A DNA stretch of 64,000 bases from Eubacteriales bacterium (GCA_045539595.1 JAZQFQ010000020.1:4497-68496); one strand, 5' to 3'; shown: positions 8,381 through 37,121, counted from the stretch's first letter. Translations and numbers: made by a program. The notes: generated by a model not told the origin, from the sequence alone.

Positions 8381-9004
8381 TTATCGGATCCGGCTGACAA
8401 ATGCCACCGCCAGTCCCAGGATACGGATCTCCTCCCCGGCATCGGGGGTCAGAATGATCGGTTTATAGGCGGGATTCTCCGCCTGCAGAATCAGATTTCG
8501 CCCATCCCGGTACACCCGCTTCAGGGTGGCCTCCTGACCGATCAGCACGGCGGCGATCTGTCCGTCATCCACCGTTTCCTGCCGCCGGACATACACCAGA
8601 TCTCCCTCCAGAATCCGGGCACCGATCATGCTGTCGCCGCGGCACCGCAGGCAGAAATCCGCCGTGATATCCAGGGGCACCGCCACCATCTCCTCCGCCA
8701 TTTCCGCCGCCAGGATCGGATCGCCGCAGGCGATATCCCCCAGCAGGGGTACCCGGTACGTCCGGGGGATCGGATGGATTTTTCTGCCCTCGCCGTACTC
8801 ATCCGGGGTAGAGATGCGCCCGGTCAGGTAATCCACGCTGACGTGAAATCCGTCGGCGATCCGGTTCAGCATATGTATATCGGGATTTCGCTTGCCGCTC
8901 TCCCAATTGCCCACGGCACCCACGGACACCTGCAGCGCCCGGGCCAATTCGGTCTGGGTGATCCCTTCCCGGCGCCTTAATTCTTTTAAACGATCCTTCA
9001 GCAT
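8381..9004 (-). CDS. XRE-HTH / S24-peptidase autocleavable repressor (phage CI-like, LexA-fold C-terminal domain)
   Basis: N-terminal Cro/C1 HTH (GITQTELARALQVSVGAVGNWESGKRNP). Putative Cys-Gly cleavage site in DIACGDPILA. Catalytic Ser in RGDSM and Lys in TLKRVY. It is not the winged-helix LexA type. Confidence 0.85.
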   Translation of the reverse strand: MLKDRLKELRRREGITQTELARALQVSVGAVGNWESGKRNPDIHMLNRIADGFHVSVDYLTGRISTPDEYGEGRKIHPIPRTYRVPLLGDIACGDPILAAEMAEEMVAVPLDITADFCLRCRGDSMIGARILEGDLVYVRRQETVDDGQIAAVLIGQEATLKRVYRDGRNLILQAENPAYKPIILTPDAGEEIRILGLAVAFVSRIR

Positions 9005-9024
9005 ATTCTTTCACCTCGCGCTCC

Positions 9025-9053
9025 ATTATATCACATTCTGTGAGAATTTGCAA
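9025..9053 (-). promoter_or_regulatory. Consensus promoter of the repressor gene with an operator palindrome in its spacer
   Basis: Minus strand reads TTGCAA (9053-9048, itself palindromic), 17 nt, TATAAT (9030-9025). The spacer contains the perfect 13-bp palindrome ATTCTGTGAGAAT (9035-9047). GAGGTGA RBS before ATG 9004. Confidence 0.75.
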
Positions 9054-9119
9054 GAGGGATTCTCACAACGAGGGAAATATATTTGTATATCCGCTCCGTC
9101 CATGGTATGCTGTTCTCAC
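9035..9119. promoter_or_regulatory. Operator half-site set (heptamer TTCTCAC/GTGAGAA, three copies) in the divergent control region
   Basis: GTGAGAA at 9040-9046, TTCTCAC at 9060-9066 and TTCTCAC at 9113-9119. TGTGAGAAT (9039-9047) and ATTCTCACA (9059-9067) form a 9-bp inverted repeat spaced by 11 nt. Confidence 0.6.
9083..9111 (+). promoter_or_regulatory. Candidate promoter of the fibre-lysis transcription unit
   Basis: TTGTAT 9083-9088, 17 nt, TATGCT 9106-9111 with upstream TGG (extended -10 like). It is followed immediately by the third TTCTCAC heptamer. Confidence 0.45.
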
Positions 9120-9201
9120 GCGGCGAAAGATACCAGGCATCATCCACCCGTCACAAAATCGATCGCCGCGAATTTCCGTTTGGAAAGAAAGGAACTCTTA
9201 T

Positions 9202-12200: not shown

Positions 12201-12768
12201 CGATTGCAAGACCGTCTATTACAGCGGAATGGCTGTTGTTTACATCGGTAATCCTGCTGTTGTGGGACTGGATAACAACGGTTTGCCGTTTGTAATCGGT
12301 AAGGTATTGGCAAATGGTTATACAATGGCCGCTTGCTTGCAGCCGAACACAACGCATTCGGTGGGTATTCTTTCGGCAACTGTCAACAAAATCCCTGAGA
12401 GGTATATGGGTGACAATGAATTTGTCCTTCACTTTGAGGGCGATCCCGACTCGGACGGTGGTTTATCCCTTAAAGAAACGGCGGATGAAATCGTGGCGGC
12501 TATCGAATCTGGAAAAAGATTACGCGGCGAACTTTATAGCCTGAATGGGGGCGAAAACCGTGCAACCATGAGTGATTGTACCTGTTTTACCCTGCCTGCC
12601 GAAGGTGCTGTAATTATCACGCTTTCTATCGGTACTTTGCAGTGGAGAGGATACTCATTCGCCATTGACATTGGACTCTCAAAAGCCCCAGACGGGACAT
12701 GCCTCATAACGGATCTTTCAACAGCCCGCTTTGAGAATGCGAGATGGTATGATCACATGACAACCTGA
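9202..12768 (+). CDS. Phage tail-fibre / receptor-binding protein with collagen-like stalk and pectate-lyase-3 (beta-helix) depolymerase-like domain, 1188 aa
   Basis: Start at MKMIEKNHSILRIGKTGENAFRTFSFDV (ATG 9202) inside track ORF 9040..12768. The N-terminus resembles BppU-type baseplate/fibre anchors. Also 10 Gly-X-Y triplets, DYGAIGLGATDDTAAFKQALAENRIVRVPGGRYV typical of pectate_lyase_3, and repeated C-terminal modules. No signal peptide. Confidence 0.75.
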   Translation: MKMIEKNHSILRIGKTGENAFRTFSFDVSDWVAEYPRGEITGVYRRPDDAVYPVKIHVKKGTAHWTVTATDLAIAGSGEMELRITDGDVIGKSMRFPCIVSEALCAGEEPPAPARDWITEVMHDAREAAEAATMAKNELTAAAERGDFDGDAGPQGPQGPKGDKGDKGDPGEDGKNGKDYILTDEDKSEIAAAAADLVEVPASPKDYGAIGLGATDDTAAFKQALAENRIVRVPGGRYVLSDTLVVRENCCLELSQDTVLEFVSEEKNAITLLRAAHLKGNHATITVPYTFSANVIHCDTGEDEAALGVDATDDEAMKAANNTAVPPFVKWDPQWKMTRYVTDVNICKPDDRGFHYSKDGDCFGTAIYLHCDAADYVSYMWGVSMSGVRIAGGFAYGIRAHNIGDAWNHDMRIEALIDACKVGVSMENCHYARLAVTIQPRRAYSDSEVYKPYAEHGILLKDCRGIDLSGSRVWDWNAETTLWAEGNYYQHIALLGECRGLILDDFLYHEQPSIDIRRLIYTDTPSNLENMTILQEPIDRWFKTKNGEAYFHDGYRDRKLVSQEEMDAHFGTDFVKGFTDVLASAEDTDGTILNGVGYKIGARLHESGTVTESPYYGYTGFIPCAKGSTIYAQDLTFDVGDQFCKVIFYDADKNFVRHINRSNIVGGSQYYTAYRSTEGGFALTVNSISDNNDVAYARFTFYKTAFGENPMMAVDEEIQYTVEGYLADNVKVKAKNVIGLPDGGSGAQSDWSAAEGEPGHVLSRTHYEDADGTVHKLDNKFIDAEWMATMVAEGEEEEILPERTISFTSKAAMVAGDSYKLLEGSRYTVYWNGTAYACTAALASSGDMVLGNGYYHMTTMQNTGEPFCFTESGGSGYVKKSTATAETFTVRIVKLPDLVPNKLPAEFLPDGIGGNANIDVTAEVGQTIVVKAVDENGKPTAWESADYQERTHWTFSGGGLVLDGQTVTFGSDGMGAISGTLDIEAGKTYTVIWDGAEYICDCKTVYYSGMAVVYIGNPAVVGLDNNGLPFVIGKVLANGYTMAACLQPNTTHSVGILSATVNKIPERYMGDNEFVLHFEGDPDSDGGLSLKETADEIVAAIESGKRLRGELYSLNGGENRATMSDCTCFTLPAEGAVIITLSIGTLQWRGYSFAIDIGLSKAPDGTCLITDLSTARFENARWYDHMTT
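9649..9738 (+). repeat. Collagen-like Gly-X-Y x10 coding repeat
   Basis: GDA GPQ GPQ GPK GDK GDK GDP GED GKN GKD, in frame with the fibre gene. Confidence 0.95.
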
Positions 12769-12798
12769 CGAACGCAGAGCCATCGAAAGGAGCAACAC

Positions 12799-13128
12799 AT
12801 GAATGAAATCGCATCAAAAATCCTCAGCGTGATTCTGTCGGCGGTGGCGTCGGGTGCCATCTCCGGCGTGGCGGTGTGGCTGAGGATGCGCAAAAAGAAG
12901 GACAGCGCCGTGGCGGACGGAGTGCAGTGCCTTCTCCGAGAGAAGATCATCGAAAAGCACGCCAAGTACGTGGAGGAAAAGCACTACTGCCCCATCTACG
13001 CCAAGGAATCCATCCGCAAGGCATACGCCGCCTATCACGCTCTGGGCGGCAATGACGTGGCCACGTCGCTGTATAAGGAAATGATGGCCCTCCACACGGA
13101 GCCGCCGGAGAAGGAGGAGAGTGCATGA
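12799..13128 (+). CDS. Phage-associated membrane-anchored protein (N-terminal TM helix plus soluble domain), function unknown
   Basis: AAAGGAG RBS. TM segment ILSVILSAVASGAISGVAVWL followed by RMRKKK. Its stop overlaps the next start (ATGA at 13125-13128). Confidence 0.65.
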   Translation: MNEIASKILSVILSAVASGAISGVAVWLRMRKKKDSAVADGVQCLLREKIIEKHAKYVEEKHYCPIYAKESIRKAYAAYHALGGNDVATSLYKEMMALHTEPPEKEESA

Positions 13129-13766
13129 ACATTACATCCGTATTGCCCATTCTGACGGAGGGGACAACCCTGCACGTCACCTCTCCCTTCGGATGGCGCA
13201 CCGATCCCGTGACGGGGGAGGGCGGCCAGGGGCACAAGGGCATCGACGTGACGCTGTGGCGGGGGTGGAGTGCCTTGTCCGGCATCGGTGCCGCCTGGGA
13301 TGGTGTGGTGATCGGTGTCCGGGACGGAGTGGAGGGATTCGACAAAAACCGCTCCGCCGGCAACCGGGTGACCATCGATCACGGGGACGGGGTGGTGACC
13401 AAATATTTCCACCTGGCAAACGGAAGTATTCCGGTGCAGCTGGGCGATCACGTCACCGCCGGGCAGATGATCGGACAAATGGGATCCACCGGGTATTCTA
13501 CCGGGGCGCACCTGCATTTCCAGTTGGAGATCGGCGGCGAACCCGTGGATCCTCTGCCGTTCCTTCTCGGGGAGGAGGGCGTCCCGGAGCAGCCCACCGA
13601 CGACATGGACAACACCCCCGCCGCCTGGGCGGAGGAGGCGGTGTCCTGGGCGGTGGAAAACGGGATCCTGTACGGGGACGAGCACGGCAACTACCGGCTC
13701 CACGAAAACTGCACCCGGGAGATGATGCTGGTGTTCCTCTACCGGGCGGTGGGAGGCGGCGCATGA
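13125..13766 (+). CDS. M23 (LytM-type) peptidoglycan endopeptidase endolysin with one C-terminal SLH-like module
   Basis: HxxxD motif HKGID and HxH motif GAHLHFQ. C-terminal AAWAEEAVSWAVENGILYGDEHGNYRLHENCTREMMLVFLYRA matches the S-layer-homology consensus. AAGGAGGAGA RBS. Confidence 0.85.
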   Translation: MNITSVLPILTEGTTLHVTSPFGWRTDPVTGEGGQGHKGIDVTLWRGWSALSGIGAAWDGVVIGVRDGVEGFDKNRSAGNRVTIDHGDGVVTKYFHLANGSIPVQLGDHVTAGQMIGQMGSTGYSTGAHLHFQLEIGGEPVDPLPFLLGEEGVPEQPTDDMDNTPAAWAEEAVSWAVENGILYGDEHGNYRLHENCTREMMLVFLYRAVGGGA

Positions 13767-14023
13767 AGAAGATGGAGTTTTCCAAGATCATCGTGGCCGC
13801 CACGATCCTGCTGGTATATCCGGCGGTGATCCTGCTGTCCTGGCGGGTGATCGAGTTGGCGGAGATGGCCGTTACCCTGAAATTCACGGGTGCGCTGCCG
13901 TACCTGACCGCCATTATCACCCCCGCCTGGGCGGCCTTCGCCACCATCCTTGGCTTCTATTTCAACAAGGCCAAGGGCGAGAACAAAGAGAAGATCCGCA
14001 AATCGGGAAAAATTGATTATTAA
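13763..14023 (+). CDS. Holin (two TM helices, basic C-terminal tail), 86 aa
   Basis: ATGA overlap with the endolysin stop. MKKMEFSKIIVAATILLVYPAVILLSW ... LPYLTAIITPAWAAFATILGFYF, then KAKGENKEKIRKSGK. It is the C-terminal part of spurious track ORF 13121..14023. Confidence 0.7.
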   Translation: MKKMEFSKIIVAATILLVYPAVILLSWRVIELAEMAVTLKFTGALPYLTAIITPAWAAFATILGFYFNKAKGENKEKIRKSGKIDY

Positions 14024-14036
14024 GAAAGAGGTACAT

Positions 14037-14327
14037 ATGGAAAGGCTGAAACAGAAACTGTCCTCCCGCAAGCTGTGGGCGGCCATCATCGCGGTGATCG
14101 TGGTGCTGGCGGTCACAATCCTGGGGGAGGAATTGACCCCCGAAACCGTCGCCACGCTGGAATGCGTGGTGGGCGCCGCCATGGCCTACATCTTCGGCGA
14201 GGGCGCCGTGGATGTGGCCCGCGTCATCGCCGAGGCGGTGAAGAAAGCGTATGCGGCGGCGTATGAGGTGGTCGGGGAGGACACCGAAACGGGCGAGGAA
14301 GACTGGCTTTTGTATAAAAAAGAATAA
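14037..14327 (+). CDS. Small two-TM membrane protein with acidic tail (second holin/antiholin-like)
   Basis: Internal ATG of track ORF 13950..14327, preceded by AAGAGG. TM segments LWAAIIAVIVVLAVTILG and VVGAAMAYIFGEGAV. Last gene before the terminator. Confidence 0.6.
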   Translation: MERLKQKLSSRKLWAAIIAVIVVLAVTILGEELTPETVATLECVVGAAMAYIFGEGAVDVARVIAEAVKKAYAAAYEVVGEDTETGEEDWLLYKKE

Positions 14328-14334
14328 CGACACC

Positions 14335-14376
14335 GGGCGGGAGGGCAATATTGCCCTGCCGCTTGCTTCCTTTTTT
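14335..14376 (+). terminator. Probable terminator of the fibre-lysis unit
   Basis: Imperfect stem around the palindrome GGGCAATATTGCCC (14343-14356), extended by GCGG/CCGC. A T6 run at 14371-14376 is somewhat distal. Confidence 0.5.
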
Positions 14377-14386
14377 ATAAAATACC

Positions 14387-14415
14387 TTGACAAAAACCAC
14401 GCTCTGTGCTACAAT
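14387..14415 (+). promoter_or_regulatory. Consensus SigA promoter of ileS
   Basis: TTGACA 14387-14392, 17 nt, TACAAT 14410-14415. Confidence 0.8.
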
Positions 14416-17833: not shown

Positions 17834-17866
17834 GGCGGCTGCCATCGGGCAGCCCCCTTTGTTTTA
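17834..17866. terminator. Bidirectional terminator between ileS and convergent murE paralogue
   Basis: GGCTGCC (17837-17843), loop ATCG, GGCAGCC (17848-17854), then CCCTTTGTTTTATTT. The complementary strand also ends in a T-run. Confidence 0.7.
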
Positions 17867-19348
17867 TTTCTTTGATTTTTCCTCCGCCAGGATCGCGGCA
17901 CATTCCTCTTCCAGAATAACCCGCTCCCGAAAGGGCACCTTCCGTCCGCCGATAAGCTGGTAGGTTTCGTGTCCTTTTCCGGCAAACAGCACGATATCGC
18001 CCGGTCGGGACATACGGACGGCAGTGCGCACCGCCACTTCCCGATCCTCGATCTCTGCCCGAGGGCAGTCGGGATGGAGATGCTCACCGATCTCCCGAAT
18101 GATGGCCATTGGCGATTCGAAATCCGGATTATCGGAGGTGATGATGCAGAAATCCGCAAGCTCGCCTGCGGCGGATGCCAACTCCGCCCGGCGGTTCTGG
18201 GACTTGCCCCCCACCGATCCGAACACGCAGATCAGCCGCACAGGACGGTATTCCCGAAGCACCGACAATGCACTGCGCAAACTGAGGCCGTTGTGGGCGT
18301 AATCGATCACAAACGTCCGCCCCGGCAGGTTGCCCGCAATTTCAAACCGGCCCTGCACCGGAGCAGTTTTCAGCGCGTCAGCGCTGTCCTTCACGCTCAC
18401 GCCGTACACGGATGCTACCGCCATGGCGGCCAGGGCATTATGCACGGAGAAGTGGCCCGGGGACAAAACGGACACAGGGGTACTTCCCTCCGCCGTCACG
18501 CAGTCGAAGCGGACGCCCAGGGTGGTATCCTCCCGATAATTCTCAATATCCCTTGCCACCAGATCCGCCTTGCCCAAGCCGAAGGAGATGCGGCGGGCAT
18601 CGGTTTCGCCCAGCATATCCGGCCACATGGCGTCGTCGGCGTTATAGATGGCATAACGGACGCCGTATTCGGAAAACAGCCGGGCTTTCGATGCGGCGTA
18701 ATGTTCAAAATTGGGATGCTCCACATCGCTGATGTGATCGGGGGACAGATTGGTAAACACGCCCACCTCGAAGGGAATGCCGTACACGCGGCTGTGAGCC
18801 AGGGCCTGGGAGGACACCTCCAATACCGCGTACTCCATCCCGGCACGGAGCATCTGATCGAAATACATATGAAGCTCCCGGCTCTCGGGGGTGGTGTTCA
18901 CCGTCTCCAGATGGGTATCTCCGATGGTGACTCCGTTGGAGCCAATATAGGCGCATTTTTTGCCCATACGGTTCAGGATGGCCGCTACCATCAGCGCGGT
19001 GGTGGTCTTCCCTTTGGTGCCGGTGATGCCGATGATGTGCAGCCGATCTGCCGGACGTCCGTAGAACTCCGCGCTGATGACCGCCAGGGTCTGTCTTGTA
19101 TCCTCCACGCGAATCACCACCGCGTCCGGGGGCAGATCCACTTCCCGACAAACAAGAAACGCCCGGCATCCCTGCGCATAGGCAGACGGGGCGTAGTTAT
19201 GCCCGTCGGACCGGGCACCCACCAGACACACAAACAGGCACCCTTCCCCCGCACGGCGGGAATCGTATTCGATACGCCGGATGTCCGTATCGGGGATCGG
19301 AGAGGATCCCGAAACGGAAACGCGGGCGAACAGATCACACAGACGCAT
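17864..19348 (-). CDS. murE: Mur ligase, MurE paralogue (UDP-MurNAc-L-Ala-D-Glu : diamino-acid ligase) with a non-canonical specificity motif DNPD
   Basis: 494 aa. N-terminal MurE domain, P-loop GITGTKGKTT, and DNPD (18122-18133) where mDAP-type enzymes have DNPR. Last gene of a four-gene operon. Confidence 0.85.
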   Translation of the reverse strand: MRLCDLFARVSVSGSSPIPDTDIRRIEYDSRRAGEGCLFVCLVGARSDGHNYAPSAYAQGCRAFLVCREVDLPPDAVVIRVEDTRQTLAVISAEFYGRPADRLHIIGITGTKGKTTTALMVAAILNRMGKKCAYIGSNGVTIGDTHLETVNTTPESRELHMYFDQMLRAGMEYAVLEVSSQALAHSRVYGIPFEVGVFTNLSPDHISDVEHPNFEHYAASKARLFSEYGVRYAIYNADDAMWPDMLGETDARRISFGLGKADLVARDIENYREDTTLGVRFDCVTAEGSTPVSVLSPGHFSVHNALAAMAVASVYGVSVKDSADALKTAPVQGRFEIAGNLPGRTFVIDYAHNGLSLRSALSVLREYRPVRLICVFGSVGGKSQNRRAELASAAGELADFCIITSDNPDFESPMAIIREIGEHLHPDCPRAEIEDREVAVRTAVRMSRPGDIVLFAGKGHETYQLIGGRKVPFRERVILEEECAAILAEEKSKK

Positions 19349-19373
19349 AGAAAAACGGCTCCTTTCGGCTCAA

Positions 19374-20120
19374 TCAGATCTGCATTTCGGGATCCATCCG
19401 AGAGAACTCCTCCCGGAATCCCTGGGTTTGACTGCCGCACATGGTGATGGCCCGGCAGGCCAGCACCTGCAAGGAATCGATAAACATTTCCTCCCGGGGA
19501 ATCTCCCGTGCCGCCACGGACAACTCGGTACAGCCGAGGATCATGCAGTCGCATCCCTGCTGCTGCAGGGGACGGACGGCTTCATACAAGAGGGCGGGAT
19601 CGCTTCGCAGGCCCCGCTTGACATAATCGTAAATGATGTGGGTCAGTTTCGCCTGACAGGCAGCATCCGGCACGGCGTAGCCGATGCCCTCTTTTTCCAA
19701 AGCACTCTGATACGCCCCCGAGGCAATGGTACCCTCGGTGGCCAGAATGCCCGCCTTTGTATGCCCGCAACTCCGGACAAAATGGGCCGTTTCCCGTATG
19801 ATGCTGGGCACGGGCACGGACACGGAGTCACGAACCTGATCGATAAAATAGTGGGCGGTATTGCAGGGGATCACAATGGCGCGGGCGCCGAAGGCTTCCA
19901 GAGCCTTGGCATCCTCGATCATAGCCGGCAAAGGGCTGTCGGCACTGCGGCCCAGGATGAAATCCGTCCGATCGGGCGTGGACGCACGGCTGGACAGTAT
20001 GATATCGATATGATCCTGATCCCGCTCGGCCTTGGTGTGGGCGGTGATCATCTCATAGAAATACGCGCTCGCCATCGGGCCAAGCCCGCCGAGAACGCCC
20101 AAAAGATGCGGTGAATGCAT
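19374..20120 (-). CDS. Aspartate/glutamate-family amino-acid racemase (aspartate racemase-like)
   Basis: 248 aa. GGLGPMAS, and the two catalytic Cys motifs IPCNTAH and LGCTEL. Confidence 0.85.
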   Translation of the reverse strand: MHSPHLLGVLGGLGPMASAYFYEMITAHTKAERDQDHIDIILSSRASTPDRTDFILGRSADSPLPAMIEDAKALEAFGARAIVIPCNTAHYFIDQVRDSVSVPVPSIIRETAHFVRSCGHTKAGILATEGTIASGAYQSALEKEGIGYAVPDAACQAKLTHIIYDYVKRGLRSDPALLYEAVRPLQQQGCDCMILGCTELSVAAREIPREEMFIDSLQVLACRAITMCGSQTQGFREEFSRMDPEMQI

Positions 20121-20143
20121 AATAGCCCCCGTTTAGGTTTTCG

Positions 20144-21373
20144 TTATTTTTGTGTGGGATAGTATTTCTTGAACTTCTTGCCCTGGCGGCGCAGAACCTC
20201 GCACACGCAGATCAGCCGCAGGGGATTCAGACAAAGATCCTTCGTATACCAGAGGGAGGAGGTGTGCTTGCCGCGGCGGGCCAAATCCCGGGCACACTTC
20301 ACAAGCGATGCGTCCTCCGTGTATGTATATGCGACAGAGCGCGGAACATGATGCCAGAAATGCACGTTTTCACACATAAGGCAGTCCTCGCCCTCGGATT
20401 CGTATACCTCCGCCGCCAGACGGGCGATATTGATTCCCGCAGAGGTGACGTAGAAGTTGCTCCGTCCCTGGCGGAGATTGATCTCAAACACCCGATAATC
20501 CTCGCCCTCGCCGGTGTATTTGATATCAAAATTGGAGAAGCCGGTGTAGCCCATATCCTCCAGCATCGCCCGGATCTTATCCGCAAAAGGCAGATTGGAG
20601 AGGGGCTCGGTCACGATGGCAGCGTGGTTGCCCAATCCCTTGGGAGTGTGCTCCTCTATCATAGTATGACCGAGGCACATAGCGCGCACGCGGCCCTTTT
20701 TATCGGAAAAGGCAGTGAGCACCCGCATGTGGGCATCACCGCCGGGGATAAACTCCTGCAGAATCATCCGCTCATCGTAGCCTGAATCGTAGATCTCGGC
20801 GATGATCGCCTCTGCATCAGCGGCAGATTTTGCGATGTACACCTTTTTCATTCCGTCAAAGGGATGCTTCCAGTACACCACGCTGGAGGAGGGCTTGATG
20901 ACGATGGGATAGTCAAAGCCCAGCACATCGGCGGACAGATCCGCCGCGTCTGTTTTTTCTGCCAGCACCACCGTCTTCGGATAGGGGATGCCGTACTTCT
21001 CGCAGATCTCGTAAAACTCCGCCTTGCGGGATACGGAATCGAGAAACGATTCGTTCGGGCAGGCGCACAGATACCGGGGCAGCTTGTCCTTATTGCGGAT
21101 GATCATAGCGGCGTAATCGTCGGTGCATCCGAACAGGATCAGTTTTCCGTCGGGATGATTTTCGGCAAATGCCGTTAACGTTCCCAGCATTACTTCGTCC
21201 CGATCGATCTCGGGCACGGCGGTGAAGCGGATAATGCGGGAATATTTGGTGGCGGAAACCGCATACCGGCCGAAGGCGTAGGAGATCACGCCATACTGCT
21301 CGTGAAAGGCTCTTGCCACGTTATAACAGTTCAGATCGGCGCCAAGGAGCACCGGGATAATCTTCTCAGTCAT
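20144..21373 (-). CDS. ATP-grasp carboxylate-amine ligase; D-aspartate-ligase-like by context
   Basis: 409 aa. The N-terminus PVLLGADLNCYNVARAFHEQYG and the ATP-grasp core (IVIKPSS..., LQEFIPGGD, FEINLRQGRS) support the family call. The specific D-Asp ligase role is inferred from the adjacent racemase and MurE. Confidence 0.7.
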   Translation of the reverse strand: MTEKIIPVLLGADLNCYNVARAFHEQYGVISYAFGRYAVSATKYSRIIRFTAVPEIDRDEVMLGTLTAFAENHPDGKLILFGCTDDYAAMIIRNKDKLPRYLCACPNESFLDSVSRKAEFYEICEKYGIPYPKTVVLAEKTDAADLSADVLGFDYPIVIKPSSSVVYWKHPFDGMKKVYIAKSAADAEAIIAEIYDSGYDERMILQEFIPGGDAHMRVLTAFSDKKGRVRAMCLGHTMIEEHTPKGLGNHAAIVTEPLSNLPFADKIRAMLEDMGYTGFSNFDIKYTGEGEDYRVFEINLRQGRSNFYVTSAGINIARLAAEVYESEGEDCLMCENVHFWHHVPRSVAYTYTEDASLVKCARDLARRGKHTSSLWYTKDLCLNPLRLICVCEVLRRQGKKFKKYYPTQK

Positions 21374-21387
21374 TCTGTTTTCCTCAA

Positions 21388-23223
21388 TCAGATTCCGAAA
21401 AATACTTTATGCCAGGTAAGGAAGGTGTAGACCGTCCAGATCTTGCGGCCGTTGTTCGTGCCGTTTCTGTGGTCGTCCAAAAGACGCACCAGGGCATCGG
21501 TGTCGAAATACTCCGCCGCCGCATCGGAGGTGAAGGCTTCCTTCACCAAATTATAGTAGCGATCCTCTCTGAGCCAGTTGCGGATCGGCACGGGGAATCC
21601 TTTTTTGGTGCGGTTTGCCCACGCATCGGGCAAGGTCTTGTTGGCGGCCGCACGGAGCACGTGCTTGGTGTTCACGCCATCGATCTTATAATGGGCAGGC
21701 AGGCTCTGGGCCTGTGCCATGATGTCCCGATCCAGATAGGGTACCCGCAACTCCAGGGAGTGGGCCATGCTCATCTTGTCTGCCTTGAGGAGGATATCTC
21801 CCGGCAGCCACAGATTCAGATCCAGATACTGCTTCTTTTCCAACTCACTCAGCCCCTGTGCCCGATCGTAAATGGGGGCGGTGATATCTCTCACGGAGGG
21901 GCCGGCCTTGTATTTGGGCTTCAGGATGGCAAGGGCATCCTTCTCTCCCCACACCATAGCCTGTCCGATGAAATAATCCTCGGGGCGGCCGCTGCCCTTG
22001 ATGATGAAATCGTGTCCTTTGAAGTAAGGCAGACCTGCGCTGAGTGACGCCGCCGCCCGGCGCAGGGGCGCGGGGATCCTTTTATATTTCCGCATCAGCG
22101 GGGTTTCGTCATACCATTCGTATCCGCCGTAGATCTCATCGGCGCCCTCGCCGGAGAGGACTACGGTCACGTGCTCTCTCGCCAGAGAGGAGAGAAACCA
22201 CAGCGGCACGGAGGACGGATTGGACTGGGGCTCATCCATATGATACTGGATGTCGGCAAAGGCGTCGAAGCACTGCTCCGCTGTCAGCTCCCGCCGGAAA
22301 TTGCGGATGCCCAGGATATCGGACAGTTCTTTCGCTTCGGTGGTTTCGTCAAACTTCTTCTCACCGAATCCCACGGAGAAGGTATTCTCCGGCATCAGGG
22401 CCGCGGTGATGTAACTGGAATCCACGCCGCCGGAGAGAAAAGCACCCAGGGGCACGTCGCTGATCCGATGGGCGGCCACGGATTCCCGCACGGCACAGTC
22501 GATGGCGTCCGCCATATCCTCAAAGGAGGCAGTGGTCTTTTTGGTGAAATCCACATCCCAATACCGGCGGATTTCCATCTTGCCGTCCCGGAAGGTGAAG
22601 GTGTGGGCGGGGGGCAGTTTATACGTACCGCGGAAGAAGGTCTCCGCCATGGAGGAATACTGGAAGGTCAGATACGGCCGGAGCGCTTCGGGATTCACCT
22701 CACGGCGGAAACCGGGATGCTCCAGAAAACTTTTGATCTCCGAGCCAAAGATCAGATTGCCCTGCTCCGTCACCGAATAATAGAAGGGCTTGATGCCGAA
22801 GTAGTCCCGTGCGCCGAACAGAGTGCGCGTCCGCTCATCCCAGATGACGAAAGCAAACATACCCCGCAGCATGGGGACGATGGCCTCGCCGAACTCCTCA
22901 TAGCCGTGGATGATGACCTCCGTATCGCAGCGGGTGCGGAACACGTGTCCCCGGGCGATGAGATCCTCCCGCAGCTGGGCGAAGTTATAGATCTCCCCGT
23001 TGAACACCATGACCATGGAGTTATCTTCATTATACATAGGCTGGGCGCCATCCGCCAGATCGATGATGCTGAGGCGGCGGAAGCCCAAGGTCACATCATC
23101 CTCGGCCACACCGATATGGTATCCTTCCATATCCGGGCCGCGGTGGATGATCCGATCCGCCATTTTCTTGATGATCGCCGCTCTGTCGGGCAGAGGGCCG
23201 GTAAATCCTGCAAATCCGCACAT
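21388..23223 (-). CDS. Glutamine-hydrolysing asparagine synthetase family amidotransferase (AsnB/AsnH-like)
   Basis: Start at MCGFAGF (cat at 23221-23223; Cys2 is the Ntn nucleophile) inside track ORF 21388..23427. PP-loop SGGVDSS. Confidence 0.9.
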   Translation of the reverse strand: MCGFAGFTGPLPDRAAIIKKMADRIIHRGPDMEGYHIGVAEDDVTLGFRRLSIIDLADGAQPMYNEDNSMVMVFNGEIYNFAQLREDLIARGHVFRTRCDTEVIIHGYEEFGEAIVPMLRGMFAFVIWDERTRTLFGARDYFGIKPFYYSVTEQGNLIFGSEIKSFLEHPGFRREVNPEALRPYLTFQYSSMAETFFRGTYKLPPAHTFTFRDGKMEIRRYWDVDFTKKTTASFEDMADAIDCAVRESVAAHRISDVPLGAFLSGGVDSSYITAALMPENTFSVGFGEKKFDETTEAKELSDILGIRNFRRELTAEQCFDAFADIQYHMDEPQSNPSSVPLWFLSSLAREHVTVVLSGEGADEIYGGYEWYDETPLMRKYKRIPAPLRRAAASLSAGLPYFKGHDFIIKGSGRPEDYFIGQAMVWGEKDALAILKPKYKAGPSVRDITAPIYDRAQGLSELEKKQYLDLNLWLPGDILLKADKMSMAHSLELRVPYLDRDIMAQAQSLPAHYKIDGVNTKHVLRAAANKTLPDAWANRTKKGFPVPIRNWLREDRYYNLVKEAFTSDAAAEYFDTDALVRLLDDHRNGTNNGRKIWTVYTFLTWHKVFFGI

Positions 23224-23272: not shown

Positions 23273-23281
23273 ATTATAGCA
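23273..23281 (-). promoter_or_regulatory. Extended -10 (TGcTATAAT) candidate promoter of the asnB-to-murE operon
   Basis: Minus strand reads TGCTATAAT about 50 nt upstream of ATG 23223. The -35 is poor (TTTATT). Confidence 0.4.
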
Positions 23282-23359
23282 TACTCTTTTCCCAAAATAA
23301 ATAGCCGAGGGGAAAAAAGTGGCTTCCGAAAAAAATTTGTAAAAATCACGCGAAACCGC

Positions 23360-23388
23360 TTGACAATCACTTGAACGTATGGTATACT
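23360..23388 (+). promoter_or_regulatory. Promoter P1 (upstream copy of a duplicated promoter)
   Basis: TTGACA 23360-23365, 17 nt, TGgTATACT (TATACT at 23383-23388). Confidence 0.65.
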
Positions 23389-23398: not shown

Positions 23399-23435
23399 GG
23401 ATCCCCGTAGGATGCGGCGGTATCCATAATTTTTT
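23399..23435 (+). terminator. Hairpin plus T6 immediately downstream of P1 (terminator or attenuator candidate)
   Basis: GGATCCCCGTAGGATGCGGCGGTATCC folds with GGAT/ATCC closing pairs and internal C-G pairs. It is followed by ATAATTTTTT (T6 at 23430-23435). Confidence 0.4.
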
Positions 23436-23461: not shown

Positions 23462-23490
23462 TTGACAATCATCCGACTGCGTGTTATACT
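23462..23490 (+). promoter_or_regulatory. Promoter P2 of the DUF1836-to-flotillin operon
   Basis: TTGACA 23462-23467, 17 nt, TGtTATACT (TATACT at 23485-23490). It shares TTGACAATCA and TATACTGT with P1. Confidence 0.7.
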
Positions 23491-23546
23491 GTGTATGTAA
23501 GCAAAATACCACAACCACCGCCCGCGGGCGGCACGGAGGATTTTAT

Positions 23547-24131
23547 ATGGATTTCGGAATTGCATTGACACGGATACCGGGAACGATTCTCGACCGACAG
23601 AAAATGGGCGGTGCCACCGGCATCGAATTTCTCAACAAGATTTTCTACATCACCGACGGAATCATGCTGGCACAGATACGGGAGATCGCCGGCGTGGACG
23701 GCACCACCCTGCAGAACTGGCTGAAGCGGGGCTGGGTCATCAACCCCGTCAACAAGATGTACAACAAGGACCAGCTGGCCCGCATTCTCATCATCAATAT
23801 GATGCGCGCCACCATGCAGCTCAGCGACATCTCGTTTCTGCTGACCTATGTGAACGGCGATCCGGGATGCCGGGAGGACGATATCATCCCCGAATCCCAG
23901 CTGTACGATTACATCTGCCGGCTGGTTGACAAACTGACCGGAGAAAACGCGGATCTTCCCCAGGAGTCTCTTTCCAAACTGATCGACACCTACACCGCCG
24001 ATTATGTGGAAACGCTGGGCGGTGCCCGCCGTCGGCTGAACCGGGCTCTGGAGATCATCCTCATGTCCTATTACGCCAACACGCTGAAACTGCGGGCGGA
24101 CGCTCTGGTCCACGCCCTGCGTGAGCGTTGA
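23547..24131 (+). CDS. DUF1836 protein with a MerR-like helix-turn-helix segment
   Basis: Start MDFGIAL (ATG 23547) after GGAGG. MLAQIREIAGVDGTTLQNWLKRGWVINPVNKMYNKDQLARILIINMM resembles DUF1836/MerR-type wHTH. Confidence 0.7.
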   Translation: MDFGIALTRIPGTILDRQKMGGATGIEFLNKIFYITDGIMLAQIREIAGVDGTTLQNWLKRGWVINPVNKMYNKDQLARILIINMMRATMQLSDISFLLTYVNGDPGCREDDIIPESQLYDYICRLVDKLTGENADLPQESLSKLIDTYTADYVETLGGARRRLNRALEIILMSYYANTLKLRADALVHALRER

Positions 24132-24168
24132 TTTTTCGATTCTTTCACCGATTTTCAGGAGGTTAATT

Positions 24169-24762
24169 ATGATTCAGTGGTGGAACAGTCTTGACACATT
24201 TGCCCGCGTCTATGCCTTTATTGCCATTCCCTCTACCCTCGTTTTGATCGTGCAGTCGATCCTTCTGATGATCGGATTGAACGACGGCGACGAAGGATTG
24301 GATCTGACGGACAACGGTTTTTCCGACACGCCGGGTGATGGCGGCTCCGACGGCTTGGCTCTGTTTTCAATCCGCGGCATCATGGCCCTGCTCACCGTAG
24401 GCGGCTGGAGCGGCCTGGCCCTGTACGCCTCCGGCGTAAACCGTCCCCTCACGATCCTCATCTCCGCCGTATGCGGTATTGCCGCCCTGTTCGCCATCGC
24501 GTATCTGATGCGCGCTGTCATGAAGCTCCAGTCCAACGGCAATATCAGCCTGAGCCACGCCATCGGCAAGACCGGCCGGGTGTACATCCCGATCCCGCCC
24601 CACACCCAGGGCAGCGGTAAAATCACGCTGACCTTGCAGGAGCGTTTTCTGGAAGCCGACGCGGTTACCACCGCGGAGCGCAAGCTGATTACCGGGGAGG
24701 CGGTACGCGTTGTCGCCACCGACGATTCCGGTCTCTTGGTTGTGGAGCCTGTGGTAAAGTAA
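24169..24762 (+). CDS. NfeD-family membrane protein (C-terminal OB-fold)
   Basis: Start MIQWWNSL after AGGAGG. TM helices, then GKTGRVYIPIPPHTQGSGKITLTLQERFLEADAVT...GEAVRVVATDDSGLLVVEP, typical of the NfeD C-terminal domain. Confidence 0.8.
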   Translation: MIQWWNSLDTFARVYAFIAIPSTLVLIVQSILLMIGLNDGDEGLDLTDNGFSDTPGDGGSDGLALFSIRGIMALLTVGGWSGLALYASGVNRPLTILISAVCGIAALFAIAYLMRAVMKLQSNGNISLSHAIGKTGRVYIPIPPHTQGSGKITLTLQERFLEADAVTTAERKLITGEAVRVVATDDSGLLVVEPVVK

Positions 24763-24785
24763 ATTCCACATAACGGAGTACAACT

Positions 24786-25124
24786 ATGGAACTATTCATG
24801 GGATTGTTTTTCATTCTGTTCTTTGTCGCGTTCTTCAGTATTCTGATCCGCAACATCGGAGAGTGGTTTAAAAACAACGCCTCCCCCCGCCTGACGGTAC
24901 CGGCGAAAGTGGTCAGCAAACGCAGCAGCCATCATCACCATCACCACGCCCACGGCGGTATGCATCACAGCACGAGTTACTATGTCACCTTTGAGGTGGA
25001 AAGCGGCGACCGGATGGAGTTGTCCCTCAGCGGTCACGAGTACGGACTCCTCGCCGAGGGCGACACCGGACGGCTCTCCTTCCAGGGCACCCGGTATCTG
25101 TCCTTTGAGCGATCCGTTCAGTAA
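24786..25124 (+). CDS. DUF2500-like single-pass membrane protein with a natural His-run
   Basis: N-terminal TM, then SSHHHHHHAHGGMHH, then YYVTFEVESGDRMELSLSGHEYGLLAEGDTGRLSFQGTRYLSFER, which matches my recollection of the DUF2500 core. Confidence 0.7.
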   Translation: MELFMGLFFILFFVAFFSILIRNIGEWFKNNASPRLTVPAKVVSKRSSHHHHHHAHGGMHHSTSYYVTFEVESGDRMELSLSGHEYGLLAEGDTGRLSFQGTRYLSFERSVQ

Positions 25125-25136
25125 AATCACACAGTC

Positions 25137-26321
25137 ATGAAACAACTACTCACATCCGACCGTCTGAAACGTATCGGACGATCTGCCCTGCTGTACGCGT
25201 TCTTCCTTCTGTTGTACTGGATCAGTTACGAAGCGGCGCTGGGGCGATTCTCCCTGCTGGAGGATGCCATCGACACCTTCTTCCCCTATGTGCCCGTATG
25301 GCTGCCGCCCCTTATACAAATACTAATTCTCCCCGCCACGTTTTACTCGGCCGCCCGGCTCTTCGCCATCCACGATCCGATTCTGAAAAAGAATCGCCCC
25401 GCGGAGGAGGATGCGCTTGCCAACTGGTTTGTGCGCACCGAGGAATTCCGCCTGGAGATGGCGGTGATCCTGCTTCTCTCCCTGCTTCTCCCTGCCGGAT
25501 GGGGAGACGGCGGCATCTTTACCCTCTTCCCCATGCATTTTCTTTTGGAAAAATTGTGCCGGATCCTGTTATTTTCGCCTTTGCTGATCGTTATTACTAT
25601 ACACGCCCATCACTGTGCGGAAATCGTATGGGACACCCCGCAAAAGCGGTTCTGGCAGAAAACCCCGCCGGCACTGCAGTTCGCAAAATCGGTCCTGCTT
25701 ACGCTGGGCGCGTACTTTGTGGGATTTATGTTCCTTCCCGTGGTGCTTCCGGCCATCCATTCCGCCTTGTACCTGCTGGCGCAGGTGGTTTGGGGATTCC
25801 GCTATTTCATCCTTGTAGGCTTCACTGCCCTGCTGCTCTTTCTGTACACGAGGGCCTGGCGGATCCGCCGGCGGTTTCTTAAGGACCTGAAAAAGATGGC
25901 GCAGGATCGGAAGTCCCACTTCCATCTCTCCCCCGTCAAGCGGGCGTGGATCTCGCTGTTCTTCCCCTCCCACCGGGCGAATTTCACCGTGCGGGTGCGG
26001 GATAAGGTATACAGCGTGCGGCTGATGGCCGATCCGATCCGCTACCGCACCATGTACTTCGGTCCGGAGGGCGCAGGCATCAAGCACAGCTCCCTCAGCC
26101 TACGGGGTATGGAGATTTTCAATATCGACATTCCCTTCACCTACGATTTTGAGGGAGAGGGAGAAAAACTAATCGTGCTGTCTCCCGTCCCGAAATTCAT
26201 CCGTTCCGTATCCAAAAACCACACCGCCGATCTGGACACCGGCGATCGGGTGGGTGAGTACCGTCTCTTCAACGGAAGCGGATTCCTCGGTATGCTGGAG
26301 CGGGACTGTCTGGAGCGATAA
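25137..26321 (+). CDS. Uncharacterised polytopic membrane protein (about 6 TM) with a ~145-aa C-terminal soluble domain; paralogue A
   Basis: 394 aa. Ends ...DTGDRVGEYRLFNGSGFLGMLERDCLER, shared with the next gene. No family recognised. Confidence 0.7.
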   Translation: MKQLLTSDRLKRIGRSALLYAFFLLLYWISYEAALGRFSLLEDAIDTFFPYVPVWLPPLIQILILPATFYSAARLFAIHDPILKKNRPAEEDALANWFVRTEEFRLEMAVILLLSLLLPAGWGDGGIFTLFPMHFLLEKLCRILLFSPLLIVITIHAHHCAEIVWDTPQKRFWQKTPPALQFAKSVLLTLGAYFVGFMFLPVVLPAIHSALYLLAQVVWGFRYFILVGFTALLLFLYTRAWRIRRRFLKDLKKMAQDRKSHFHLSPVKRAWISLFFPSHRANFTVRVRDKVYSVRLMADPIRYRTMYFGPEGAGIKHSSLSLRGMEIFNIDIPFTYDFEGEGEKLIVLSPVPKFIRSVSKNHTADLDTGDRVGEYRLFNGSGFLGMLERDCLER

Positions 26322-26336
26322 GTTGGGAGTTTATCT

Positions 26337-27542
26337 ATGAGTAACGACAAACGCATACCTATCGGCACGATACTGGCGCAGTCGGTTTTGCAATGCATCG
26401 TTTTCGCTGGAATTACGAAACTGTCGCAGATTTTGTTTCGATCCAATATGTTCGGGGAAGAGTATTTTACGTACGGACACCCGTCCATCTGCGATCTGAT
26501 TCTTCTTGTGCTGATTTTTGAATCCACCGTGTACACCTTCCGTGTCCATGATAATACTGCACAGGCGGCGTATCTGGCAGATCCAGCCACAGGCGGCGTG
26601 CTTTCCGACATGCGTTATGTGCTGACATCCGTGGATTTCTGGCTGGGATACATCGTTCATTCGCTGTTTTCCGTGCTTCTTCCCGTATCCTTTATCTACG
26701 GATGTGTCGGTGACACGCTCTGGCGCGATGTCCCATGGACATCATCCCGGAATAAGCTGTATACCCTGCTCGTTCTTCTTCCGCTGTTCTTCGCGGCGGC
26801 ACTGTACGCCCACATCTCAGCCAGAAGAAAATGGTACGGCATGAAAGTCCGAAATCAGACCACCACCGCATCGCAGGAAAAATACCAAACCGCAAAAGCG
26901 GTGCTGATCATTGCGCTTATATATGGCGCTGTATCCATAGCACTTCCGTGGTTCTTCCCGTTTGTTGTAACGATTTTAAATCTGGCCAACAACTACGATG
27001 TGTTTTTGTGGTTGGGAATCCTCGCCGTTGCTGTCATTCTGGCAGTGGCTGCATGGTTGCTCTTCCACTATATCCGCGCCTGCCTGAAGCGGCGCCGATT
27101 TATAGAAAACCTCACCGCCATGTGCGAGAGGGACGGGGTGGAACTGTCCACCATTCGCCGGCCGTATGCTTCCCTGCTCTCCCTGCAGAGCGGATCGGAT
27201 TTTACCCTCACAAAATCCGGCAGACAATACGATTGCAAGTTCATCGCGGGTATTCTGCCCAACTCTCCCATTGTATTTACCGAGAGGGGCAACGGAATGT
27301 GTCAGCACACGCTCCACTTGTTCCGTGTACCGCTTCTGCATCTTAATTCACGTATCGATTTCGCCTTCGAGGCGGACGGCACAAAGATACTGATTCTTTT
27401 ACCGATTCCCAAGGACATTTACACTGCCACACAAACCACCAAGCCCCTCCCCGCTGACACGGGAGAGCGGATCGGTGACTACCGCATTTACAACGCCAGC
27501 GGTTTCCTCCATGCCCTGGAGCGGGACTGTCTTCACCGTTAA
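26337..27542 (+). CDS. Uncharacterised polytopic membrane protein; paralogue B
   Basis: 401 aa, GGGAG RBS. Ends ...DTGERIGDYRIYNASGFLHALERDCLHR. Post-TM RRRF motif as in paralogue A. Confidence 0.7.
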   Translation: MSNDKRIPIGTILAQSVLQCIVFAGITKLSQILFRSNMFGEEYFTYGHPSICDLILLVLIFESTVYTFRVHDNTAQAAYLADPATGGVLSDMRYVLTSVDFWLGYIVHSLFSVLLPVSFIYGCVGDTLWRDVPWTSSRNKLYTLLVLLPLFFAAALYAHISARRKWYGMKVRNQTTTASQEKYQTAKAVLIIALIYGAVSIALPWFFPFVVTILNLANNYDVFLWLGILAVAVILAVAAWLLFHYIRACLKRRRFIENLTAMCERDGVELSTIRRPYASLLSLQSGSDFTLTKSGRQYDCKFIAGILPNSPIVFTERGNGMCQHTLHLFRVPLLHLNSRIDFAFEADGTKILILLPIPKDIYTATQTTKPLPADTGERIGDYRIYNASGFLHALERDCLHR

Positions 27543-27597
27543 CCTTGTTGTTCATCACATACGTGATTTGCAAAATATTATTTAAAGGAGAAACAAT

Positions 27598-29043
27598 ATG
27601 ATGTTTCATACTGCCGCAAACTATCTTTTGACCGCCGGCCCGGACAGCGGTGCCATGATTCTCGTGCTTGTGTGCGTTGTTGCCCTTCTGCTCCTGACCA
27701 CCGTCACGCTGATTCTGTCCCGCTACAAGCGCTGTCCTTCCGATAAGATCCTGGTTATCTACGGTAAGGTCGGCACCGGCTCCGATGGAACCAGTCGCTC
27801 CGCTAAGTGTATCCACGGCGGCGCGGCCTTCATCTGGCCCATCGTACAGGCGTACGAGTTCTTGGACTTGACTCCCATGTCTCTGTCTGTGGATCTGCGC
27901 AACGCGCTGTCCCGCCAGAACATCCGTGTGGACGTTCCTTCCCGATTCACCGTTGGTATCTCCACCGAGGTGGGCGTCATGCAGAACGCCGCGGAACGCT
28001 TGCTCGGTATGAAACTGGACGAGATCAAGCAGATCGCCGAAGATATCATCTTCGGTCAGATGCGTCTGATCATCGCTACCATGGACATCGAGGAGATCAA
28101 CACCGACCGTGATAAGTTCCTCGACGCCGTATCCGGCAACGTGGAAACCGAGCTGAAGAAGATCGGTCTCCGTCTGATCAACGTAAACGTAACTGACATC
28201 AACGACGAGAGCGGCTACATCGTAGCTCTCGGTAAGGAAGCTGCCGCTAAGGCCATCAACGACGCGAAGATCTCCGTGGCAGAGGCTGACCGTAACGGTG
28301 CCATCGGTTCCGCTGAGGCTGACCGCGATATGCGTATTAACGTATCCAAGTCCAACTCCGAAGCCATCAAGGGTGAAAACGAGGCGAAGGTACAGGTTGC
28401 CGAGTCCGAGGCTACCCGCCGTGGGCGCGAGGCAGAGGCTCTGAAGCGCGCTACCGCCGCCGAGAACATCCAGGCTGCAAAGGCAATGGAAGAATCCTAC
28501 GAAGCCCAGAAGGCTGCCGAGCAGGCCCGTGCCTCCTTCGAGCAGGCTAAGATGGAAGCCGACGTCATCGTTAAGACTCAGATCGAAAAGCGTCAGCTGG
28601 AATTGCAGGCTGAGGCTGAGGCTGAGCAGATCCGCCGCCGTGCAAAGGGTGAAGCCGATGCGATCCTGATGAAGATGCAGGCAGAGGCCGACGGTATGCG
28701 TGAGATGCTGACCAAGCAGGCAGAAGGTTTTGCTGAGATCGTTAAGTCCGCGGGCGGTCACTCCGACGACGCAATCCGCCTGATGATTGCCGACAAGATG
28801 GAAGAGCTGGTCAAGATCCAGGTACAGGCTATCCAGGATCTGAAGATCGACAAGATCACCGTTTGGGACAACGGCGGAACCTCCCCCGACGGCAAGAGCA
28901 CCACGGCCAACTTCGTATCCGGTCTCATGAAGGCCGTTCCCCCGATGAACGAGCTGTTCGATATGGCCGGTATGCAGCTGCCCAAGTATCTGGGCGAGAA
29001 CAAGCCCACCGATGTGGAAGTTCCCGCTGCTCCCGCCGAATAA
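27598..29043 (+). CDS. Flotillin (SPFH/band-7 domain protein, FloT/YuaG-like)
   Basis: 481 aa. N-terminal TM, SPFH core, and a long Ala/Glu-rich flotillin coiled coil (EAEALKRATAAENIQAAKAMEES...). AAAGGAG RBS. Confidence 0.9.
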   Translation: MMFHTAANYLLTAGPDSGAMILVLVCVVALLLLTTVTLILSRYKRCPSDKILVIYGKVGTGSDGTSRSAKCIHGGAAFIWPIVQAYEFLDLTPMSLSVDLRNALSRQNIRVDVPSRFTVGISTEVGVMQNAAERLLGMKLDEIKQIAEDIIFGQMRLIIATMDIEEINTDRDKFLDAVSGNVETELKKIGLRLINVNVTDINDESGYIVALGKEAAAKAINDAKISVAEADRNGAIGSAEADRDMRINVSKSNSEAIKGENEAKVQVAESEATRRGREAEALKRATAAENIQAAKAMEESYEAQKAAEQARASFEQAKMEADVIVKTQIEKRQLELQAEAEAEQIRRRAKGEADAILMKMQAEADGMREMLTKQAEGFAEIVKSAGGHSDDAIRLMIADKMEELVKIQVQAIQDLKIDKITVWDNGGTSPDGKSTTANFVSGLMKAVPPMNELFDMAGMQLPKYLGENKPTDVEVPAAPAE

Positions 29044-36276: not shown

Positions 36277-36282
36277 AATAGT

Positions 36283-36684: not shown

Positions 36685-36724
36685 TCCTTGTCCCCGCATA
36701 GAATAGAACATGGAGGATCTACAT

Positions 36725-37105: not shown

Positions 37106-37121
37106 CAAAAAGAAGATGATT

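Follow-up and report, generated by a model that had tools for sequence, protein, structure and literature searches.

In a 64,000-nucleotide stretch of DNA from Eubacteriales bacterium (GCA_045539595.1, JAZQFQ010000020.1:4497-68496), referred to as the window, a compact minus-strand run of four genes encodes an AsnB-like amidotransferase, an ATP-grasp ligase, an aspartate racemase and a second MurE (MurE2). This cassette is probably a module for making a peptidoglycan stem that carries L-lysine (or L-ornithine) at position 3 with a D-aspartate or D-iso-asparagine (D-Asp/D-iAsn) branch, running alongside the meso-diaminopimelate (mDAP) pathway. The dcw (division and cell wall) cluster, with the MurE of its own (MurE1), is located 28 kb from the cassette, in the same window and on the same strand. 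The proposal is based on the enzyme families, the specificity motif of MurE2, the pairing of the ligase with a Lys-type MurE in a related locus, the conserved gene order, the presence of two MurE enzymes in a second species, the selection acting on the genes and the type of promoter.

Organisation of the cassette

The families of the four products were assigned by Pfam and NCBIfam scans, and the successive genes are separated by gaps of 14, 23 and 25 nucleotides (nt), each including a purine-rich, Shine-Dalgarno-like stretch. A preliminary description of this DNA had pointed out these spacings and the co-transcribed look of the genes, had called attention to an extra MurE with a non-canonical diamino-acid motif, and had placed the three activities for a D-Asp bridge within the operon. 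The first point holds, as open reading frames (ORFs) and gaps match, and the cassette has a conserved promoter at its 5' side and a terminator hairpin at its 3' side. The second is borne out by the canonical dcw cluster in the same window and by the motif found at the DNPR position, which is DNPD in MurE2 as against DNCR in MurE1. With regard to the third, members of the corresponding families occur here, the ligase shows homology to AslA and the gene neighbourhood is as in lactobacilli, which is consistent with the predicted activities. In sum, the four genes are likely to form one transcription unit and a self-contained branch of peptidoglycan precursor synthesis, the functions being assigned by homology.

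The hairpin following murE2 is a strong one, with a 7-pair stem, 6 of the pairs being G-C, and T-rich tails on both strands. When the whole window was scanned against Rfam at the gathering threshold, no riboswitch, T-box or other RNA family was matched. Long plus-strand ORFs that run over the operon (e.g. 17969-19447) were set aside, since the family matches fall in minus-strand frames; they are likely shadow ORFs of the G+C-rich coding sequence, a judgement made without any library scan.

As regards expression, 51 of 63 orthologous loci have an extended -10 sequence of the form TGnTA(T/A)AAT in the 200 nt preceding asnB, mostly 35-60 nt before the start codon, the background being 0.025 per 200 nt. 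Moreover, in 34 orthologous cassettes the TG of this sequence is preceded, at a distance of 12-13 nt, by a TATTTATTT-like AT-rich motif, which may act as a -35 region, an UP-like element or a regulator site. The promoter resembles the housekeeping (sigma-A-like) type, which suggests vegetative and possibly constitutive expression, and the cassette is without any linked regulator gene.

Two MurE enzymes with different position-3 motifs

MurE2 has all three Mur-ligase domains (PF01225, PF08245 and PF02875) and exceeds the cut-offs of the MurE models NF001126 (427 bits, cut-off 373) and TIGR01085 (379 bits, cut-off 257). It retains the P-loop GTKGKT, the conserved Lys (ASKARLF) and the DYAH and GKGHE motifs, and the L-Lys-adding MurE of Staphylococcus aureus (4c12) ranks second among its PDB matches. 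In the structures of the Escherichia coli and Mycobacterium tuberculosis enzymes, the Asn and Arg of the motif bind the distal carboxylate of mDAP, whereas the S. aureus enzyme (DNPA) has no such Arg and uses Asp-406 and Glu-460 to hold the epsilon-amine of L-Lys (PMC3829189). The mDAP-binding Arg is likewise missing from MurE2 and is kept in MurE1, and MurE2 keeps equivalents of Asp-406 and Glu-460, together with an extra acidic residue in the place of the Arg. Such a pocket would, we infer, suit a cationic side chain without a distal carboxylate, and the amino acid predicted to be added by MurE2 is most likely L-Lys, L-Orn being possible.

Across 74 MurE2 orthologues the DNPD motif is nearly invariant, a few having DNPN, and the residue aligned with E. 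coli R389 is Arg or Lys. These orthologues also share an EVSSQAL motif and a two-residue insertion, DHIxxxEH, and an exhaustive search of 50%-identity representatives revealed that both features mark a large MurE subfamily ('SSQ / DHIxxxEH'). At the fourth position of the motif some members have D, G, N or A and others have R, from which MurE specificity appears to have switched repeatedly within the subfamily. Furthermore, the ligase and racemase genes of a related locus (L028) are neighboured by a MurE on the opposite strand whose motif, DDPN, is the classical one of the Lys type, which points to an independent association of the ligase with a Lys-type MurE. Among the 50% representatives and the cluster members looked up, the DNPD type could not be linked with any cultured organism whose wall chemistry is known, and the clusters nearest to MurE2 consist of unnamed metagenome proteins or carry a generic diaminopimelate (DAP) ligase label. 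In fact, the NCBIfam DAP-ligase 'equivalog' NF001126 accepts both DNPD and DDPN proteins, its label being non-discriminating, and the automatic name 'diaminopimelate ligase' is probably wrong for MurE2-type enzymes.

The identity between MurE1 and MurE2 is 34%. When MurE1 was used to scan metagenomes, its dcw orthologues were found to keep DNxR, in the form of DNSR, DNPR or DNCR. The Cys that MurE1 has for Pro is a feature of its own: the motif reads DNSR in close relatives and DNPR, DNAR or DNVR in remoter ones (loci L093-L122), the Pro of the motif being evidently dispensable in this lineage and the Arg being kept. MurF is presumably common to both types of tripeptide.

The putative D-aspartate ligase

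In the known pathway, the ATP-grasp enzyme AslA adds D-Asp to the L-Lys of the precursor and AsnH then amidates the bridge (PMC4155827, PMC13631041). The racD gene of Lactococcus lactis is in the same operon as aslA (PMC4155827), and RacD, AslA and AsnH have been named for Latilactobacillus curvatus (PMC13631041). Homologues of these enzyme families have also been reported in Bifidobacterium adolescentis.

The ATP-grasp matches of the cassette ligase are weak but consistent and fall in residues ~110-330 (large subunit of carbamoyl-phosphate synthetase, CPSase, 3e-6; Ddl_archaea, 2e-5; LysX; ATPgrasp_Ter). When the family profile was compared with the PDB, the significant matches were all ATP-grasp proteins (CPSase, 1e-4; 4dim, 3e-3), and no close solved structure was found. 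The closest database relatives are unnamed or called 'ATP-grasp domain-containing protein', and a 73%-identical homologue carries the Joint Genome Institute (JGI) name D-aspartate ligase. In a tblastn search against PLSDB, where the matched records were chromosome-sized though labelled plasmids, the ligase was matched in Lactobacillus crispatus (34% identity, E 3e-69), L. curvatus (32%, E 3e-62) and Limosilactobacillus fermentum (30%, E 6e-56). These proteins, annotated 'carboxylate--amine ligase', are covered over 99-100% of the length and show 33-35% identity after MAFFT alignment, the four-way alignment being collinear from end to end, with motifs in common. In addition, the lactobacillal synteny is like that of the cassette, the ligase gene being located directly 3' of an amino acid racemase gene (racD) in L. 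curvatus and directly 3' of asnB in L. crispatus. The pairing of ligase and racemase, which are 23 nt apart here, is also seen in L. curvatus, in Subdoligranulum variabile and in about 75 loci of metagenome-assembled genomes (MAGs). The enzyme is thus regarded as a putative D-aspartate ligase, which would join the beta-carboxyl of D-Asp to the amine of residue 3. An AlphaFold model built from a 10-sequence alignment had a mean predicted local distance difference test (pLDDT) value of 56, a quality insufficient for a fold search, and was discarded.

Two further proteins came to light in these searches. PDB entry 4dim, matched weakly by the Asl profile (E 0.003), is a 403-residue ATP-grasp protein from Anaerococcus prevotii annotated as phosphoribosylglycinamide synthetase; this species presumably has a Lys–D-Glu wall, and 4dim could be a mis-annotated cross-bridge ligase. 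Also, the 546-kb conjugative plasmid pl546 of Bacillus mycoides carries an Asl-like ORF (35% identity over 78% of the query) that is split into two 'hypothetical proteins' and followed by an amino acid racemase (L092, 5974-7950), possibly a plasmid-borne and perhaps decayed ligase-racemase pair.

Racemase and amidotransferase

The racemase belongs to PF01177 and is recognised by the aspartate racemase model TIGR00035 (asp_race) with 218 bits (cut-off 93), the MurI models remaining far below their cut-offs. It is 36% identical to RacD of L. curvatus and contains the motifs IPCNTAH and LGCTELS, with Cys86 and Cys197, which we take to be the catalytic Cys pair of the pyridoxal phosphate (PLP)-independent racemases.

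The AsnB-like protein combines the Pfam domains GATase_7 and Asn_synthase and scores 523 bits with TIGR01536. Although its ORF stays open upstream to 23427, the true start was placed at MCGFAGF (23223), since an N-terminal nucleophile (Ntn) amidotransferase needs Cys2. With the asnB product of L. crispatus, encoded directly upstream of the asl homologue, it shares 45% identity, and with that of S. variabile 64%, and the gene adjoins the ligase gene in all three organisms. The enzyme is a putative AsnH-type amidotransferase of the D-Asp bridge, mDAP and free Asp being other conceivable substrates.

Conservation across uncultured Clostridia

When one genome per GTDB species was scanned, close homologues of the ligase turned up in 176 genomes, and the best 80 of these were examined. 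The 80 are without exception MAGs from uncultured Clostridia of the gut, carry the labels Oscillospiraceae, Acutalibacteraceae, 'Ca. Avispirillum' or 'Ruminococcus sp.' and were obtained from ruminants, other animals and humans; the closest relative, at 97-98% identity, is a MAG from roe-deer rectum. About 70 species-level MAGs, belonging to a single uncultured Oscillospirales clade, share the order AsnB-ligase-racemase-MurE2, the flanking genes being variable. The survey of operon conservation proposed in the preliminary description came out positive among the best 80 genomes, the order being kept wherever the contig was long enough. As nearly all of the 80 have the four genes in this order, the arrangement is not a matter of chance.

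The two MurE enzymes are also found together in a different species, whose contig Ga0208297_1000144 (179,960 bp) has a complete cassette at a distance of about 24 kb from an orthologue of the dcw MurE1 (DNSR). Its ligase and MurE1 are 75% and 65% identical, respectively, to those of the window, and the divergent neighbours, from the DUF1836 gene to the flotillin gene, are the same. When the cassette genes were compared with three orthologous loci by the Nei-Gojobori method, the ratio of non-synonymous to synonymous substitution rates (dN/dS) was 0.04-0.17 for the four genes (0.055-0.09 for the AsnB-like gene, 0.08-0.17 for MurE2) and 0.13 for MurE1. The cassette genes and MurE1 are under purifying selection, and neither of the MurE paralogues looks decaying.

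Proposed pathway and alternative explanations

In the proposed pathway, MurE2 would make a UDP-N-acetylmuramic acid (UDP-MurNAc)-tripeptide with L-Lys (or L-Orn), to which the dcw-encoded MurF would add D-Ala-D-Ala, completing the pentapeptide. The racemase would convert L-Asp into D-Asp, and the AslA-like enzyme would activate the beta-carboxyl of the latter and ligate it to the side-chain amine of residue 3. The AsnB/AsnH-like enzyme would in turn amidate the alpha-carboxyl, giving D-iso-asparagine. The resulting Lys–D-Asx precursor (Asx standing for D-Asp or D-iAsn) would then be taken up by MraY, MurG and the penicillin-binding proteins (PBPs). This wall precursor would belong to the A4-alpha type (Lys–D-Asx) and would either accompany or replace the mDAP stem of MurE1. 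An alternative stem peptide beside the dcw pathway had already been envisaged in the preliminary description, and the combination of a MurE2 without the mDAP Arg and a dcw MurE that keeps it speaks in favour of that idea.

Several observations weigh against this pathway. The L-lysine-ligase equivalog NF010628 gives MurE2 330 bits, below its cut-off of 536, and DNPD is close to, not identical with, the textbook motif of the Lys enzymes, D(D,N)P(N,A). The comparison of the ligase extends to the lactobacillal orthologues of the characterised Aslfm, and the functions in this uncultured clade are assigned from homology and synteny. The racemase passes the cut-off (190) of the cysteate-racemase model CuyB with a score of 202, as does that of S. 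variabile (221; L087, 8267-8983). L. curvatus RacD, named in PMC13631041, nearly does so too, and since it scores 185 the model does not discriminate; the reading as a cysteate racemase was dropped, and automatic annotation may mislabel such aspartate-type racemases in this way. Finally, the cultured relative S. variabile has a ligase-racemase-AsnB trio in a different order, followed by metG and with no adjacent MurE2 (L087, 6992-10890), and its dcw MurE is of the DNPR type (L090, 7917-9446). The Asl-like ligase may consequently not depend strictly on a Lys-type stem: either another MurE is encoded outside the searched part of that assembly, or the ligase family is able to use mDAP stems.

This last case leads to the explanation that ligase and amidotransferase act on mDAP precursors, making a D-Asx branch (A4-gamma-like) and/or amidating mDAP as AsnB1 and LtsA do, with MurE2 as a differently regulated isozyme. 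The S. variabile trio agrees with it, and AsnB homologues of Lactiplantibacillus plantarum do amidate mDAP (PMC4155827). It is nevertheless improbable, as MurE2 has lost the Arg for the mDAP carboxylate and has an acidic residue instead in essentially all orthologues, and a non-DNPR MurE is tightly linked to the ligase across the clade and recurs independently in L028 (DDPN); moreover, a second MurE is absent only from the searched part of the S. variabile assembly. An unlikely explanation, though a less improbable one, is a developmental partition as in Lysinibacillus (Bacillus) sphaericus, in which the Lys–D-Asx cassette would serve the vegetative wall and the mDAP-adding MurE1 the spore cortex, or the reverse, the two stems being separated in time. 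Tipper and Linnett are said to have described in 1976, for that species, a vegetative wall of the Lys–D-Asp type and a cortex with mDAP, made with separate adding activities. Two intact MurE paralogues with differing motifs, under purifying selection in at least two species, would fit such a partition, and the sigma-A-like promoter of the cassette agrees with vegetative expression. However, no recognisable sporulation gene or sporulation-type promoter was found in the 64-kb window. The spoIIGA-sigE-sigG block, usually located after ftsZ in spore-forming Firmicutes, is absent from that place, which is occupied by an ABC transporter, and the PBP and the SEDS (shape, elongation, division and sporulation) proteins of the dcw cluster remain below the SpoVD and SpoVE cut-offs.

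It is very improbable that the cassette makes something other than peptidoglycan, such as a peptide-decorated nucleotide sugar for another polymer or a cyanophycin-like or poly-amino-acid-like product. Cyanophycin synthetase does pair ATP-grasp and Mur-ligase modules, and MurE2 matches its models weakly, but far below the cut-off, at 114 bits against 850. In addition, MurE2 is a three-domain enzyme with a UDP-binding N-domain that scores above the MurE cut-offs, and the closest relatives of the ligase with a characterised context are the peptidoglycan Asl enzymes. The Lys (or Orn)–D-Asx module operating next to the mDAP pathway is, on balance, the explanation we prefer.

Comparison with known systems

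The enzyme families and the logic of the pathway are already known from Lactobacillales. The RacD-AslA (Aslfm)-AsnH systems of L. lactis, Enterococcus faecium and lactobacilli comprise the same three enzyme families as the cassette, which differs in having all three together with a dedicated MurE paralogue in one operon, at only 32-45% identity to the lactobacillal enzymes. Its host, moreover, belongs to an uncultured lineage of Clostridia that keeps an mDAP-type dcw MurE. MurE2 is like the S. aureus enzyme (4c12) in its three domains, in the Asp and Asn of DNPx, in the Glu of the GKGxE loop and in lacking the mDAP Arg, whereas its fourth motif residue is Asp instead of Ala and it belongs to the 'SSQ / DHIxxxEH' subfamily, which has DNPR members. 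L. sphaericus is similar to what is predicted for the organism of the window in having two position-3-adding activities and a D-Asp bridge, although no evidence of sporulation was found in the window. A further likeness is to the van-type operons, which are also compact and re-specify part of the stem peptide beside the housekeeping pathway. These change the C-terminal D-Ala-D-Ala, confer inducible resistance and have a two-component regulator, whereas the cassette would act on position 3 and the bridge, is linked to no regulator and has a constitutive-looking promoter.

The preliminary description had presented the arrangement as one not known to be described in Clostridia, and indeed no description of it in this class was found in the searchable literature, which likewise gave nothing relevant on two-MurE organisms or Lys–D-Asp walls in Oscillospiraceae. 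Within that literature, three aspects appear to be new: the joining of the three bridge functions and a dedicated MurE in one conserved operon, the occurrence of the cassette across a broad clade of uncultured Clostridia, and its coexistence with an intact Arg-type dcw MurE.

Genomic surroundings

The features of the cassette and of the dcw region are compiled in Table 1.

Table 1. Position of the cassette, its expression signals and the dcw genes in the window
Feature	Position	Strand	Remarks
AsnB/AsnH-like glutamine-dependent amidotransferase	21388-23223	-	611 aa; N-terminal Met-Cys, starts MCGFAGF
ATP-grasp carboxylate-amine ligase, AslA/Aslfm-like, putative D-aspartate ligase	20144-21373	-	409 aa
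PLP-independent aspartate-type racemase	19374-20120	-	248 aa; Cys86, Cys197
MurE2, full-length MurE	17864-19348	-	494 aa; motif DNPD
G+C-rich hairpin, bidirectional terminator-like	17837-17854	.	between murE2 and convergent ileS; common to both
Extended -10 promoter TGCTATAAT	23273-23281	-	~50 nt before the start codon of the asnB-like gene
AT-rich element CTATTTATTTT of the -35 region, conserved	23294-23304	-	TATTTATTT-like motif
MurE1, dcw-cluster MurE	47534-49039	-	motif DNCR; predicted mDAP-adding; NCBIfam MurE models 438-442 bits
MurF	46044-47534	-	TIGR01143 402 bits; sole D-Ala-D-Ala-adding enzyme seen in the window
dcw cluster	39793-53439	-	rsmH, ftsL/divIC-like, class B PBP, murE1, murF, mraY, ftsW, murG, ftsQ, ftsZ

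Upstream of the cassette, a divergent plus-strand operon (23481-29043) encodes a DUF1836 protein, a membrane protein, a DUF2500 protein, two tandem paralogous membrane proteins and an SPFH/flotillin protein. The tandem paralogues (25137-26321 and 26337-27542) are ~400 residues each, have no Pfam match and are alike at their C-termini (...GFL..LERDCL.R). This neighbourhood, from DUF1836 to Band_7, adjoins the cassette in a second species too (L173, 1-3908), though not in more distant ones. Upstream of the DUF1836 gene, the plus strand carries a pair of near-identical, strong promoter-like sites TTGACAATCA...TATACTGT (23360-23388 and 23462-23490), which are TG-extended, have 11/12 matches and are 102 nt apart. 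A terminator-like hairpin (23410-23425) with a T-run is located between the two, and the arrangement could represent a very short transcript or leader, or a duplicated promoter.

Elsewhere in the window, positions 8381-14400 form a prophage-like or lysis-like stretch with a LexA/S24-type repressor (8381-9004), an M23 peptidase with a surface-layer homology (SLH) domain (13125-13766) and a small hydrophobic ORF (13950-14327). A 1242-residue ORF of this stretch (9040-12768) has weak, sub-threshold collagen-repeat and pectate-lyase-like matches. As M23 peptidases often cleave peptidoglycan cross-bridges, the specificity of this one could indicate the wall type of the host. Also, the G+C content dips to 0.435, compared with about 0.56, at 36001-38000, where a gene of the SUKH/SMI1-KNR4 family is found (37235-37819). 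The members of this family are usually regarded as immunity proteins of polymorphic toxin systems, and this segment, which borders the dcw/ftsZ region on its downstream side, is possibly a small island of acquired DNA.

Implications for cell wall chemotype

The peptidoglycan chemotype is a classical taxonomic trait, yet little is understood of the way in which it changes in a lineage. An operon in which a position-3 ligase is combined with bridge-building and bridge-amidating enzymes, and which many species keep beside an mDAP pathway, would offer a concrete genetic route for such a switch. It is tentatively suggested, as a possibility more than as an expectation, that the cassette is a portable 'chemotype module', i.e. 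one four-gene unit that re-specifies stem position 3 and the cross-bridge and is run, by a large clade of uncultured gut Clostridia, together with an intact mDAP pathway. There might then be two chemotypes per cell (mixed, spatially separated or condition-dependent), or else a preserved evolutionary intermediate between A1-gamma (direct mDAP cross-links) and A4-alpha (Lys–D-Asx) walls.

Hosts distinguish muropeptides of the mDAP and Lys types, mammals through NOD1 versus NOD2 and insects through their peptidoglycan recognition proteins. The kind of wall that abundant, uncultured Clostridia of the gut possess thus bears on predictions of host-microbe signalling, that is, on which muropeptides the host meets, as well as on the predicted susceptibility to lysozyme, endolysins and antibiotics. 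The cassette is, however, mainly of interest as a testable model of chemotype change.

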